Assembly (NCBI GenBank): GCA_963718915.1
Contig: CAVRAI010000015.1
Location: 240,001-272,000 of the forward strand
DNA: 32,000 bases
Origin: an uncultured Chloroflexia bacterium
GTDB taxonomy: Bacteria > Chloroflexota > Ktedonobacteria > Ktedonobacterales > JADMIN01
Reading direction: 5' to 3'
Shown here: positions 2,558-5,591 of the stretch, in pieces
Layout of the letters: every line of letters begins with the position of its first letter
Numbering within the stretch: position 1 is the first letter of the stretch
Translations under genes and position numbers: made by a program
The notes under the pieces: model-generated
Seen by the model: only the letters and a program-made list of their open reading frames with translations
Told to the model about the DNA's origin: nothing
Database searches by the model: none

Positions 2558-3091
2558 TTATTCCGGCCTGGTGGTGCGGTACGCCTCAAACTCCTCCTCG
2601 ACCTCGAAGCCGAGTTTCTGGTAAACGTGCTGCGCCGCGCTATTGCCGACGGTGACGAAGAGCACCAGCTCGCTCTCGCCCCGCGCCAGCAACGCATTGA
2701 TGCTCGTACTGAGCAGAAACGTCCCCAGCCCCTGCCCGCTTGCGTCGGGATGTGTCATGAGGAAGGCCAGCAGTGGCTGTTTCTGGCCAATACGCTCGTC
2801 GGTCCAGTCGGTGATGATGGTGGCGCCGAGCGCGCGCCCCTCTTCCTCAACTAGCAGGGAGCAGGTATCCAGCAGCGGGCCGTACTTGCCGTTGAAGACG
2901 CCTTCGATCTCTGCAACCGTCTCCTCTGACGTCTCGCCCTCATCGTCAATGGTGTCGTGGTAGGCGTCGTACATCAGCGCGCCGAGGAGTGTGGCGTCGC
3001 GCCCGGTGATGGCGCGCGCGTTCCACGGTCCATTGATGGGCTGCTGGGTGAGGCGATTGCGCATCATCCAGCGCTTGTATGTCTCAGCCAT
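2558..3091 (-). CDS. GNAT family N-acetyltransferase
   Basis: 177 aa with acetyl-CoA motif A (HPDASGQGLGTFLL) and a typical GNAT C-terminal beta-strand region. AAGGA lies 7 nt upstream of the ATG. Confidence 0.8.
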   Translation of the reverse strand: MAETYKRWMMRNRLTQQPINGPWNARAITGRDATLLGALMYDAYHDTIDDEGETSEETVAEIEGVFNGKYGPLLDTCSLLVEEEGRALGATIITDWTDERIGQKQPLLAFLMTHPDASGQGLGTFLLSTSINALLARGESELVLFVTVGNSAAQHVYQKLGFEVEEEFEAYRTTRPE

Positions 3092-3117
3092 GCATTATTC
3101 CTTCTGACCGTCAGACG

Positions 3118-4005
3118 CTATAGTCGCGCCTCGATCCAGTCCAGCAGTGTCTGCGTGTAGAGTGGGCTGATCGCGGCCATATCGCGACCACCATGAAGCG
3201 TAGGATGATGACTCGCGCCGGGCAGGCGCTTGATTGTGACGTCGCCAGTTGCAGCGCGTCGCCACACCTGGATGCTCTCGTCCGCTGGCGTCCACTCGTC
3301 ATCCTCGCCATAGAAGAGCAGTGTCGGACAGCGCACGCCTGCGAAAATCGGCTCTGGGTCGAAGTCCATGTCCTCCCACGAGCCTGGTTCTGGCAACTCA
3401 CGTGGAACGTACGTGAGCGAGAACCAGGGCTGGCCTGCCATACGATCAATCAGCGCCTGCGTTCGCGCCCGTTCAGCGTGGCCGCGTAGATAATCTTCGT
3501 AGGTGGCGCGGAGGTCGGTTAGCATGGTGAGCGCCTCGTCTCCATATCCTGCGCGACGCAGTTGTTTGGCGATCCCATAGCGCATCTGGCGGGCGGGGCT
3601 GACACCGGTAGATGCGATCAGTGTCAGGAAGGCCACCGCGTCCGGCGCTATGCTCGCAGCCAGTGGAGCTGCCCACGCGCCCTGGCTGAAGCCCCACAAC
3701 CCTAATGGCGCATTGCTCACCCCTGGAACCTGCCGTAGTTCATGGAGCATGACGAGCGCATCCTTCGCCTGGAGCGCCAGTGGCACATCGCTATCGTCTC
3801 TATATGCCCGCCGGTCGAAGCGCAACACGGCGACGCCACGAGGTGGCAGGATCTCCGCAAGATGGCGAAAGAGGAACTGATCGCGCGACGGCTCGCTCGC
3901 GGGGTGAAGCGGGACCAGCCCTCCTCGAACTGGCCCTGTCGGCATGGTCAGGGTCGCGGTGAGTGTGACATAGTCACTGGCGATCCGCACCTGATGCTCG
4001 TCCAT
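3118..4005 (-). CDS. Alpha/beta hydrolase fold protein
   Basis: Nucleophile elbow GFSQGAW, C-terminal GEDDEW (acid) and GASHH (His) motifs. Start chosen at MDEHQV (4005; GGAG 6 nt upstream). Alternatives are 4017 and 4065, but 4065 abuts the tRNA-operon terminator. Confidence 0.7.
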   Translation of the reverse strand: MDEHQVRIASDYVTLTATLTMPTGPVRGGLVPLHPASEPSRDQFLFRHLAEILPPRGVAVLRFDRRAYRDDSDVPLALQAKDALVMLHELRQVPGVSNAPLGLWGFSQGAWAAPLAASIAPDAVAFLTLIASTGVSPARQMRYGIAKQLRRAGYGDEALTMLTDLRATYEDYLRGHAERARTQALIDRMAGQPWFSLTYVPRELPEPGSWEDMDFDPEPIFAGVRCPTLLFYGEDDEWTPADESIQVWRRAATGDVTIKRLPGASHHPTLHGGRDMAAISPLYTQTLLDWIEARL

Positions 4006-4066
4006 GCGCTTCTCCATTCTCTCCCTTTTTGCATCGGAGACGCCAGTAGCAATGCAGAAATGCACG

Positions 4067-4094
4067 AAAAAAGCCTCCCGCGTATGAGGAGGCT
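4067..4094 (-). terminator. Rho-independent terminator of the tRNA operon
   Basis: The minus strand reads AGCCUCC-ucauacgcg-GGAGGCU followed by UUUUUU, 23 nt after the CCA end of the downstream tRNA. Confidence 0.8.
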
Positions 4095-4116
4095 CGTGAT
4101 GGCTGGTGAGGTGGTG

Positions 4117-4191
4117 TGGTGGCGAGGGTGGGATTTGAACCCACGACCGACGGCTTATGAGTCCGCTGCTCTACCGCTGAGCTACCTCGCC
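4117..4191 (-). tRNA. tRNA with CAU anticodon (elongator tRNA-Met, or tRNA-Ile2 if lysidinylated), CCA encoded
   Basis: Minus strand: GGCGAGG UA GCUC AGCGGUA GAGC A GCGGA CUCAUAA GCCGU CGGUC GUGGG UUCAAAU CCCAC CCUCGCC ACCA. Complete cloverleaf, with one A31xG39 mismatch in the anticodon stem. Confidence 0.85.
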
Positions 4192-4230
4192 ATATCAACC
4201 GCCCCCAAGCCGAAGCCGGGGGGCGAGATT

Positions 4231-4612
4231 TGGTAGCGGGGGGCGGATTCGAACCGCCGACCTCCGGGTTATGCTTGCTACTACAGCTTTCGCTGCCCGG
4301 CGAACCGGTTTGTAGTCTGGACTTTCCCTTCACCCTCGGCGTTACCCGTTAGGGGCCTCACATCAAGTCTCTACACGTTCTCCTGCGGATTCATCATCCT
4401 CAAGAGCTTCGCTCGGGATTACCCTGCCAACGGCTTCCCCGAATTTGTGAGGTGTTCGCACATCAGTTTCCCGGTGTGCAGCCCATTGTGAAATGAGTTC
4501 CCACGCACAGCGATAATCGGCAGATTTTGGTCTTCGCTGGCGCTGGCCGACTGAACGACCGCCTCACTTCACGGAATTGAGCCCGACGAGCTAACCACTG
4601 CTCTACCCCGCG
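4231..4612 (-). tRNA. Initiator tRNA-fMet(CAU) gene interrupted by a group I intron (exon 1 4612-4580, exon 2 4273-4231)
   Basis: Exon 1 is CGCGGGGUAGAGCAGUGGUUAGCUCGUCGGGCU and exon 2 is CAUAACCCGGAGGUCGGCGGUUCGAAUCCGCCCCCCGCUACCA. Joined, they give a 76-nt cloverleaf nearly identical in layout to E. coli tRNA-fMet: 1x72 mismatch (C/U), three G-C pairs closing the anticodon stem, anticodon CAU, encoded CCA. Confidence 0.9.
4274..4579 (-). ncRNA. Group I intron (IC3-like, no ORF) in the anticodon loop of tRNA-fMet
   Basis: The 5' exon ends in U and the intron ends in G; this is the only one of three sequence-compatible junctions with both. Complementary pairs occur in canonical order: P2-like GCACA/UGUGC around CCGGGAAACUGA, P3 CCUCACA/UGUGAGG, P4 UUCGGGG/UCCCGAG, P6 CUCUUG/CAGGAG, P7 GACU/AGUC, P8 CCCU..AGGG, P9 ACUAC/GUAGU enclosing UUCG and GAAA tetraloop hairpins. 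Core strings GUAGAGACU, CCCUAACG, GAGGGU, AAAGUCCA and AGCGAAAGCUG resemble cyanobacterial/Azoarcus tRNA introns as I recall them. Confidence 0.85.
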
Positions 4613-4623
4613 TCGCAAAAGAG

Positions 4624-4653
4624 AGTATATCTCAGTGGGCCATCTCCTGTCAA
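4624..4653 (-). promoter_or_regulatory. Sigma-70-type promoter of the tRNA operon (TTGACA-N18-TATACT)
   Basis: The minus strand reads TTGACA ggagatggcccactgaga TATACT ctcttttgcga CGCGGGG (tRNA 5' end). The -35 box overlaps the stop codon of the sigma factor gene. Confidence 0.65.
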
Positions 4654-5591
4654 GCTGGATGCGATGGGTCGGCGGAGCTACTTTGTCTTGTGGTGCTGGA
4701 GAGCTGTTCTTTCAGAAAGGCCAGTTTCTCTGGGTTCAGTTGCGCATAGATCTCCTGGATGCCCGCGGCACTCACGGTGAGGCTGAGGACTCCGACCAGG
4801 CTGCCCTCATCCCAGAACAGGATGGCTGGGCTGCCATTGATCTCAGCCAGCGTAGTGGTCAGTGGCAGCGGATTTTCGCGCTGCAGGTCCAGCCAGAGGC
4901 TCCAGACACGCGCCACGGCTTGCTGGCCGTAGATAGGCTTGAGATTCGCCTGCACTTTGCCGCCACCATCTCCCCAGGAGACGGCATCCTCAGCCAGCAG
5001 ACTGGTCAGCCCCACCATGTCTCCGGCCTGACTGGCGGAAAGAAAACGGAGCAGAAGCTGGCGCTGGCGTTGCGGCTCTGGCTCGAAACGCACGCGCTCA
5101 TCCTGCAATGCCCGCCTGGCCCGATGAAAGATCTGGCGGCAACTAGCGGGGCTTTTCTCCAGCATGCCGCCGATCTCGTTAAATGGGTAATCAAACACCT
5201 CATGCAGGAGAAAAACGGCGCGCTCGGGCGGGCTGAGAGTCTCCAGCAGGCGCAAAAAGGCCAGTGAGAGCGCTTCTTGTTGCTCAAGATGTGCTCCGCC
5301 ATCCCCCGACGTGAGGATCGGCTCAGGTAACCAGGTACCAATATACTGCTCGCGAGTGACATGAGCCGATTTCAGATAATCCAGCGCCAGACGGGTAATG
5401 ATTGTGCTGAGATACGCCTTCAAAGAGTCGATTTCCTGGTCAGCGCTCGCCTGATAGCGCAGATAGGTCTCCTGTACAAGGTCTTCCGCGTCACTCGCGC
5501 TACCGGTCATCCGATAGGCGATGGAAAAGAGCAGCACGCGATACTGCTCGAACGCTTCTCCCTGGTTCTCCTTGCGCATAGATGCATCCAT
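4650..5591 (-). CDS. ECF sigma factor, ECF41/SigJ-type with fused C-terminal SnoaL-like domain
   Basis: 313 aa. Sigma-70 region 2 (FEQYRVLLFSIAYRMTGSASDAEDLVQETYLRY), region 4 (LSPPERAVFLLHEVFDYPFNEIGGMLEKSPASCRQIFHRARRAL), then a ~110-aa extension (VSWGDGGGKV..INGSPAILFW..NPEKLAFL) typical of SigJ-like proteins. No adjacent anti-sigma factor. Confidence 0.85.
   Translation of the reverse strand: MDASMRKENQGEAFEQYRVLLFSIAYRMTGSASDAEDLVQETYLRYQASADQEIDSLKAYLSTIITRLALDYLKSAHVTREQYIGTWLPEPILTSGDGGAHLEQQEALSLAFLRLLETLSPPERAVFLLHEVFDYPFNEIGGMLEKSPASCRQIFHRARRALQDERVRFEPEPQRQRQLLLRFLSASQAGDMVGLTSLLAEDAVSWGDGGGKVQANLKPIYGQQAVARVWSLWLDLQRENPLPLTTTLAEINGSPAILFWDEGSLVGVLSLTVSAAGIQEIYAQLNPEKLAFLKEQLSSTTRQSSSADPSHPA

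Follow-up and report, generated by a model that had tools for sequence, protein, structure and literature searches.

An endonuclease-deleted IC3-type group I intron in an initiator tRNA gene of a Ktedonobacterales bacterium

We analysed a stretch of 32,000 nucleotides (nt) of contig CAVRAI010000015.1, from an uncultured bacterium of the Chloroflexota (hereafter the window), in which a gene for the initiator tRNA (tRNA-fMet) is divided by an insert of 306 nt. We consider it highly probable that the locus is a two-gene chromosomal tRNA unit, consisting of a promoter, tRNA-fMet, a tRNA-Met(CAU) and a terminator, and that an IC3-type group I intron, descended from an I-Ssp6803I-type intron and stripped of its endonuclease gene, splits the tRNA-fMet gene between U33 and C34. 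The identification of the insert as an IC3-type group I intron is supported by an Rfam match, by covariation of the helices, by homology to the tRNA-fMet introns of cyanobacteria and by an exact empty site in orthologous loci.

Gene structure and intron boundaries

With the 306 nt removed, ARAGORN recognized a 76-nt tRNA-Met(CAU) on the minus strand at 4612..4231, a segment that starts with CGCGGGGUAGAGCAGUGGUUAGCUCGUCGGGCU and ends with CAUAACCCGGAGGUCGGCGGUUCGAAUCCGCCCCCCGCUACCA. Run on the genomic DNA with introns allowed, the same program returned a split gene with a 306-nt intron at 33/34 (gggct-intron-cataa). The spliced sequence carries a C1xU72 mismatch, A11:U24, G29G30G31:C39C40C41, the CAU anticodon and an encoded CCA, and it agrees with the initiator tRNA determinants named in the literature (e.g. 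PMC3017606, PMC5389676), namely a 1:72 mismatch, three G:C pairs at 29-31:39-41 and a purine11:pyrimidine24 pair. The nucleotide before the 5′ splice site is a U, and the intron closes with a G (4274). Because the intron and the 3′ exon both start with CA, three cut positions are equivalent in sequence and give the same product; we chose 33/34 among them, since only this position satisfies the rule of a U before the intron and a G at its end. It is also the classical insertion position. A sequence-only reading of this DNA had proposed the split between U33 and C34, the initiator features (C1xU72, the GGG/CCC anticodon stem, CAU and the encoded CCA) and the terminal U and G, all of which were borne out, the split itself both by the intron-allowed ARAGORN run and by the empty-site orthologs described next. 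Its statement that no open reading frame (ORF) explains the stretch holds insofar as no gene is found among the ORFs, but mechanical ORFs do overlap it.

The boundaries of the intron were established by two orthologous loci, L209 (Ga0105239_10215082, 2155 bp) and L187 (Ga0182008_10128885), which were retrieved when metagenomes were scanned for the window tRNA in its uninterrupted form. Window positions 2767-4273 align with L209 positions 1-1509 at 93.5% identity, and window positions 4578-5225 align with L209 positions 1508-2155 at 97.5% identity; the flanking proteins, a hydrolase and an extracytoplasmic function (ECF) sigma factor, are 94% and 98% identical, respectively. L209 has the same promoter, identical exons and the same inter-tRNA hairpin, and precisely 306 nt are absent from it. 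The second empty site, L187, lacks exactly the same 306 nt. Both loci read ..GGGCT/CATAACCC.. at this point (the slash marks the site), which places the insertion between nt 33 and 34, and the intron-less target sequence in Ktedonobacterales, as seen in L209, is TCGTCGGGCTCATAACCCGGAGG. The 3′ exon of the window is identical to that of L086, one of the related intron-bearing loci described below, and to the corresponding part of the uninterrupted genes of L209 and L187. As the orthologs lack exactly these 306 nt, the intron boundaries are exact, and the predicted junction CU/CAUAA is confirmed at the DNA level. A second pair of loci is formed by L057, which has an intron with an endonuclease gene, and L154, which is empty; their flanks are 86% and 98% identical, and both have the same tRNA-Pro upstream. 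Intron presence thus varies among close relatives.

The ribozyme core and its known relatives

When 751 nt were searched with RF00028 (Intron_gpI), the model matched over its full length (positions 1-253) at 4501..4299 on the minus strand, with a score of 42.2 bits and an E value of 2.5e-9, which is significant though under the Rfam gathering score. We aligned 49 non-redundant, endonuclease-free introns with MAFFT (alignment A1) and used the window sequence to draw a P1-P9 model with the P3/P7 pseudoknot; for P8 we relied on the row of the related locus L023, because MAFFT had misplaced the 1-nt deletion that the window has in this helix. The model comprises 61 pairs, and 95.1% of the cells of the alignment were paired, as compared with 34-44% when the partners were slid. 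Double (compensatory) changes were present in 39 of the 61 pairs, and none of 500 shuffles reached any of the observed measures. P3, P4, P7 and the outer part of P5 were 100% paired, P8 and P6 were 98.6% paired, and the U33.G pair in P1 was invariant (49/49 sequences). In the columns that are at least 95% conserved among 46 non-Ktedonobacterial introns, the window keeps 78 of 82 residues, and the remaining four columns make up two compensated pairs, one in P3 (U.G to A-U) and one in P6 (C-G to G-C).

A minimum free energy (MFE) fold of the single sequence recovered P2, P3, P4, P6a, P8, P9a and P9b, together with the acceptor, D and T arms of the tRNA (three of its four arms). GAAA loops close P2 and P9b, and a UUCG loop closes P9a. 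The sequence-only reading had assigned P2-P9 in canonical order, with GAAA and UUCG loops and an IC3 core, and the two checks suggested with it, the RF00028 search and the covariation alignment, both came out in its favour. The core and the loops therefore stood, but intron nt 8-92 (approximately 85 nt) form an extension of P1 and not a P2-type core, and that reading had missed that the 5′ third of the 306-nt insert is a P1 extension plus the scar of an endonuclease gene.

In BLASTN searches, the window intron matched nearly all (more than 90) of the inserts in at least 100 split tRNA-fMet genes, cyanobacterial ones included, with E values down to 1e-112; the E value was 6e-43 against Oscillatoria (L004) and 6e-17 against Trichodesmium erythraeum (L015), and the cyanobacterial members showed 72-78% BLAST identity over approximately 200 nt. 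The assignment to subgroup IC3 would follow from homology to introns that are marked IC3 in GISSD, according to a large survey of bacterial tRNA introns (doi 10.1101/2020.01.27.920355). With the fMet.2Ug intron of cyanobacteria (Synechocystis PCC 6803 type), the phylum from which this class was originally described, the window intron shares the host gene, the site after U33, the U-1/omega-G rule, P1-P9 and the core strings. The Tpc1.fMet.2Ug seed sequence is laid out in the same way, its P9 region is nearly identical, and it has the P9b hairpin GCAGCGAAAGCUGU in common with the window. The Synechocystis intron is 655 nt long and contains a 150-amino-acid ORF for the homing endonuclease I-Ssp6803I (PMC1995217). 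The window intron differs from the cyanobacterial one in its Ktedonobacterales host, in the reduction of the endonuclease gene to a remnant of approximately 70 nt, in a lineage-specific compensated pair in each of P3 and P6, and in a P8 that is one base shorter. The introns of Azoarcus tRNA-Ile(CAU) and Anabaena/Nostoc tRNA-Leu(UAA) belong to the same IC3 subgroup and have the same compact core; AAA in J3/4, UCGGGG in P4, GUAGAGACU in J6/7-P7 and AAGGGA-AGUCC in J8/7 are common to them and the window. They differ, however, in host tRNA and anticodon-loop position (Ile2.5Ug and Leu.3Ug versus fMet.2Ug) and, unlike the window intron, have no endonuclease gene or remnant in P1.

By the established group I pathway, GCU/CA of the folded precursor would pair with the internal guide UGGGC to form P1, in which the splice site is marked by a U.G wobble. 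P7 would bind an exogenous guanosine, which would attack after U33, and the terminal G (4274) would then take the place of the guanosine in the G-binding site. The freed 3′-OH of U33 would finally attack after this G, joining CU to CAUAA and giving a normal 76-nt initiator tRNA.

Table 1. Features of the split tRNA-fMet gene and the surrounding tRNA unit (window coordinates)
Feature	Position	Strand	Remarks
tRNA-fMet 5′ exon, nt 1-33	4580..4612	-	Acceptor 5′ strand, D arm with A11:U24, anticodon-stem 5′ strand, C32, U33; ARAGORN
Group I intron, IC3-type, fMet.2Ug, 306 nt	4274..4579	-	5′ splice site after U33; omega-G at 4274
tRNA-fMet 3′ exon	4231..4273	-	C34 through encoded CCA; ARAGORN
P1 with 10-bp extension	4481..4582	-	P1 formed by GCU/CA with UGGGC (4485..4481); splice-site U.G pair inside
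P1 extension stem	4572..4563 with 4497..4488	-	GUGAAGUGAG with CUCAUUUCAC; closes the loop that formerly held the endonuclease gene; in MFE fold
Ribozyme core	4277..4479	-	P2 4479..4458; P3 4452..4447/4361..4356; P4 4442..4437/4418..4413; P5 4433..4422; P6/P6a 4412..4371; P7 4369..4365/4324..4320; P8 4355..4331; P9/9a/9b 4316..4277
3′-end remnant of I-Ssp6803I-type homing-endonuclease ORF	4480..4552	-	Translates ..QRQRRPKSADYRCAWELISQWA..; alignment A2 with L057 and L113
Sigma-70-type promoter-like site	4624..4653	-	TTGACA-18 nt-TATACT; ends 12 nt upstream of the tRNA 5′ end; 11/12 consensus
GC-rich hairpin	4200..4225	-	CGCCCCCCGGCUUCGGCUUGGGGGCG; between the two tRNA genes
Second tRNA(CAU), called tRNA-Met	4117..4191	-	72.3 bits; in tandem with tRNA-fMet
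Intrinsic-terminator-like hairpin with T run	4067..4095	-	Closes the two-tRNA unit; kept in L209 and L187

The endonuclease remnant and the history of the intron

The closest relatives of the window intron among the matches listed lie in five Ktedonobacterales-type loci (L023, L057, L081, L086 and L113), with intron identities of 86-92%; the nearest among these matches is L057, whose intron is 92% identical over 280 nt (91.8-92.2% for the shared part). The introns of L057 and L113 are 652 nt long, and the extra 350 nt or so belong to an ORF that starts with MDTKLKGDIAEQAA. This ORF of about 150 amino acids starts within the P1 loop, its end spans the P1 3′ strand and P2, and in both loci it encodes a member of the I-Ssp6803I family (PD-(D/E)XK; PF11645, PDB 2OST). 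The L057 ORF matched the I-Ssp6803I structure PDB 2OST with an E value of 1.9e-62 and PF11645 (PDDEXK_5) with an E value of 3.8e-50. As shown by an alignment with these two introns (alignment A2), the window intron keeps the first 25 nt or so of the element and resumes at ..AGTCGGCCAGCGCCAGCGAAGACC.., the translation of which is ..QRQRRPKSADYRCAWELISQWA. What it retains of the ORF is thus approximately 70 nt, the last 22 codons or so, whereas the start codon and about 350 nt are gone. A Pfam search of the window remnant gave no match.

As judged from this alignment, the window copy is an endonuclease-deleted derivative of an endonuclease-bearing intron. A mobile I-Ssp6803I-type intron has an intact endonuclease gene; having a remnant only, the window copy is classed here as a derivative and not as a mobile member. 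The remaining codons would at the same time supply the 3′ strands of P1 and its extension. Since CUCAUUUCAC is the 3′ strand of the P1 extension and UGGGC the internal guide, the retained stretch of the ORF is not free to decay, and equivalent P1-extension stems covary between lineages by eye in alignment A1. Three deletion endpoints were found in alignment A2 among the endonuclease-free Ktedonobacterales introns, one in the window, one in L023 and one shared by L081 and L086, and alignment A1 contains remnants of the same ORF in endonuclease-free introns of a Nitrospirota member (L038), a proteobacterium (L006) and an Eremiobacterota member (L116).

In many endonuclease-bearing introns (L057, L113, L014, L021, L074, L076, L088 and L093), the frame stays open past the protein of about 150 amino acids and through P2-P6, and these long frames end at a UGA or UAG in or beside P7, the extension reading ..V(R/K)xPxKFGEAVGxVxPSxA... 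The frame of the window remnant (4365-4552, minus strand) is open to the same TGA. The extension through the core probably arises as a side effect of ribozyme conservation, the alternative being a core-encoded C-terminal extension of the protein.

[quoted passage not shown] The window copy would have descended from an intron bearing such an endonuclease, an internal deletion of approximately 350 nt having removed the gene except for its last 22 codons or so. With the endonuclease gene deleted and the core kept, it could still splice but would have lost the ability to home by itself. Close relatives carry alleles of all three kinds, intron-free, endonuclease-bearing and endonuclease-deleted. 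By an established model, which Goddard and Burt reportedly put forward in 1999, homing elements pass through a cycle of invasion, endonuclease decay and loss, and two pairs of loci differing only by the intron, together with independent deletions, are the pattern expected from such a cycle. Moreover, the window shares 92% identity with L057 in the intron but 83% in the adjacent tRNA-Met gene, and the intergenic spacers cannot be aligned, a disparity that leans towards lateral movement of the intron within the order.

The intron may instead have been ancestral to the Ktedonobacterales group and inherited vertically, with L209, L187 and L154 empty by precise loss and no recent gain by homing in the window lineage. 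We regard this history as unlikely, though it deserves to be taken seriously. In a rough neighbour-joining tree of 188 core columns, which was built without bootstrap and is indicative only, the Ktedonobacterales introns cluster together, beside a Nitrospirota and an Actinomycetota sequence; all of them are in the same fMet/Met tandem, the three endonuclease-deletion endpoints suggest long residence, and for four of the five relatives the identity of the intron is about that of the neighbouring tRNA-Met. The same tree, however, places other Chloroflexota introns (L054, L078 and L095) elsewhere, and vertical inheritance requires precise loss to have happened independently in at least two pairs (the window with L209 and L187, and L057 with L154). 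It also fits poorly with the intact endonuclease genes in the clade and with the excess of intron identity over that of the surroundings between the window and L057. We lean towards gain by homing over precise loss.

Another possibility is that the gene is dead, the intron being catalytically incompetent or the locus silent, and that initiation is served by another, uninterrupted tRNA-fMet elsewhere. The examined part of the genome amounts to 32 kb of a contig of at least 1.04 Mb, the tandem tRNA-fMet genes of L137 and L149 make extra copies plausible, and the endonuclease part is clearly decayed. Yet the decay is confined to a dispensable ORF, changes at highly conserved core positions are all compensated, the helices are all intact, a near-consensus promoter is retained, and close relatives have functional-looking uninterrupted genes with the same exon sequences; we consider a dead gene very improbable. 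The view that the insert is not a group I intron but an insertion sequence fragment, the scar of an integrative element or an assembly chimera in the anticodon loop can appeal to the unreached Rfam gathering threshold and to the duplication of tRNA-fMet 3′ halves by integrative elements in some genomes (L109, L115), but it is effectively refuted by the full-length RF00028 alignment, the strong covariation of the helices, about 100 homologous introns at the same site in other genomes, the lack of direct repeats flanking the insert and the exact excision point in the orthologs. An unrelated insertion with a chance likeness to group I introns was also considered, and it is excluded by the E value of the full-length match (2.5e-9) together with the exact empty site.

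Several points weigh against our interpretation of the locus as a split gene with a splicing-competent intron gained by homing. The RF00028 score is below the gathering score of 50, so that the Rfam threshold is not reached; we attribute this shortfall to the limited sensitivity of a model whose seed is without bacterial introns, and do not take it as evidence against membership. In the survey cited above, cut-offs of 18-20 bits were used (doi 10.1101/2020.01.27.920355). Two inner P5 pairs are weak (50% paired in alignment A1), and the distal pair of P9 is A.C in the window. Because the omega-G of the relatives was required by our search pattern, only that of the window is independent. Guanosine-dependent self-splicing of the window intron is a prediction drawn from conservation alone. 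Finally, the presence/absence pattern fits a gain in the window lineage after its split from L209 and a precise loss in the relatives alike.

Host range, the tRNA unit and consequences for annotation

A database protein is 100% identical to the window gluconokinase, its named homologues at 71-74% identity all belong to Ktedonobacterales, and the 5′ exon of the window, which has a AGUGGUUA D-loop, does not differ from those of L023, L057, L081, L086 and L113. These results assign the host to the Chloroflexota, class Ktedonobacteria, in line with the sequence-only proposal that the genome is non-cyanobacterial and Chloroflexi-like. The window flanks showed no nucleotide or protein similarity outside the tRNAs to 120 genome loci of the intron scan, and so the intron-bearing metagenome-assembled genomes (MAGs) are not close relatives of the window at the level of the flanks. 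In the metagenome loci L121-L240, the uninterrupted tRNA-fMet genes with the 39-nt central sequence came mostly from another, very abundant soil lineage, which has a CGCGGGA.. acceptor and no encoded CCA; since this 39-nt core is shared, the sequence of the D arm and anticodon arm by itself is not diagnostic for Ktedonobacterales.

We scanned 185,579 species genomes for tRNA-fMet 3′ halves that have a G where U33 would be expected, and took as verified those split genes that had a tRNA-fMet 5′ half 201-695 nt upstream; the counts are lower bounds. From 121 pattern matches we excluded 18 without a paired 5′ exon (chunk edge or unusual 5′ half) and three partial 3′-half repeats (L109, L115), and at least 100 loci were verified. 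Among those listed, 49 are cyanobacterial and 51 come from at least 15 non-cyanobacterial phyla (Rhodothermales, Nitrospirota, Pseudomonadota, Omnitrophota, Patescibacteria, Planctomycetota, Chloroflexota, Bdellovibrionota, Actinomycetota, Desulfobacterota, Elusimicrobiota, Chlamydiota, Eremiobacterota, Auribacterota, Bacteroidia and Melainabacteria), although these counts rest on MAG labels, which can be wrong, a caution that adds to those given above. Four or five of the listed genes are from Ktedonobacterales. Endonuclease-sized introns numbered 18 among the matches listed, 17 of them outside photosynthetic cyanobacteria. The premise of the sequence-only reading that tRNA-fMet introns are described mainly from cyanobacteria, and with it any rarity of the find, is not supported by the scan or by the 2020 survey, which reports 5292 split tRNA genes across bacterial phyla and describes fMet.2Ug as one of four classical bacterial tRNA intron types, all of them IC3 (doi 10.1101/2020.01.27.920355). 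A full-text literature search found no paper on group I introns interrupting tRNA genes of Ktedonobacteria, and a scan of viral contigs with the split-gene pattern gave 0 matches, and hence no evidence for a phage vector.

Some of the loci call for separate comment. L044, from a MAG titled Acetobacteraceae, has exons identical to those of Nostoc loci and an intron of the same length, and is probably misbinned cyanobiont DNA. In Actinomycetota/Gaiellaceae MAGs (L109, L115, L064, L065 and L112) and in L145, which has three tandem matches, an intact tRNA-fMet is accompanied by partial copies of its 3′ half hundreds of bases downstream. These copies look like attachment-site repeats of elements integrated in tRNA-fMet, and are false positives for the split-gene pattern.

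All five Ktedonobacterales-type intron loci have the fMet/Met tandem, as do the intron-less orthologs. Two promoter-like sites were found, as compared with 0.3 expected in shuffles, and the one upstream of the tRNA-fMet gene (Table 1) is kept in L209. The inter-tRNA hairpin may be a processing or weak termination signal. At the same spot in L023, L081, L113 and L086, the hairpin has a trailing T run and is terminator-like, whereas the window and L209 have no such run, and lineages may differ in how far transcription reads through to the second tRNA. At the foot of its anticodon stem, the second tRNA(CAU) carries an A31.G39 mismatch in the window, L057, L086 and L113, and C31-G39 in L023 and L081; it is either an elongator tRNA-Met or a tRNA-Ile2 (lysidine), and ARAGORN calls it Met. 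In two metagenome relatives, two tandem uninterrupted tRNA-fMet genes are followed by the tRNA-Met (L137, 5904-6136; L149, 11253-11484), so that the initiator copy number at this locus varies and extra copies are plausible. Directly upstream of the unit, at 4650-5591 on the minus strand, lies the gene of the ECF-type sigma factor (Sigma70_r2 + r4_2), which has a long C-terminal extension and is 98% identical in L209; nothing evident connects it with the intron.

ARAGORN with default settings and Rfam at gathering thresholds reported only the neighbouring tRNA-Met (4191..4117), as had been predicted for annotation that is unaware of introns. Because default finders miss the split gene, the genome would be reported as being without an initiator tRNA, and the completeness scoring of MAGs would be distorted.

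The intron belongs to a known family that surveys have already shown to be widespread, and existing knowledge of group I introns and initiator tRNAs is unchanged by it. As a member it is new in its host order and its endonuclease-deleted form, and the present analysis contributes an exact empty site, the scar of the endonuclease gene and the series of alleles. The empty sites, the endonuclease-bearing sister and the three deletion derivatives serve as natural controls, from which the homing cycle of a bacterial tRNA intron can be read directly, and, outside cyanobacteria, they speak for lateral spread and against ancient vertical inheritance. Tentatively, and with rather less than even confidence, we suggest that a homing cycle is still going on in soil Ktedonobacterales, and that the element, occurring with its endonuclease in at least 15 phyla and with intact endonuclease genes mostly outside Cyanobacteria, may be among the bacterial homing elements of broadest host range, one that targets the near-universal anticodon arm of tRNA-fMet and whose frame is co-constrained with P1 and P2. 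Should this locus be the only initiator tRNA gene of the genome, all translation initiation would depend on the activity of the ribozyme.

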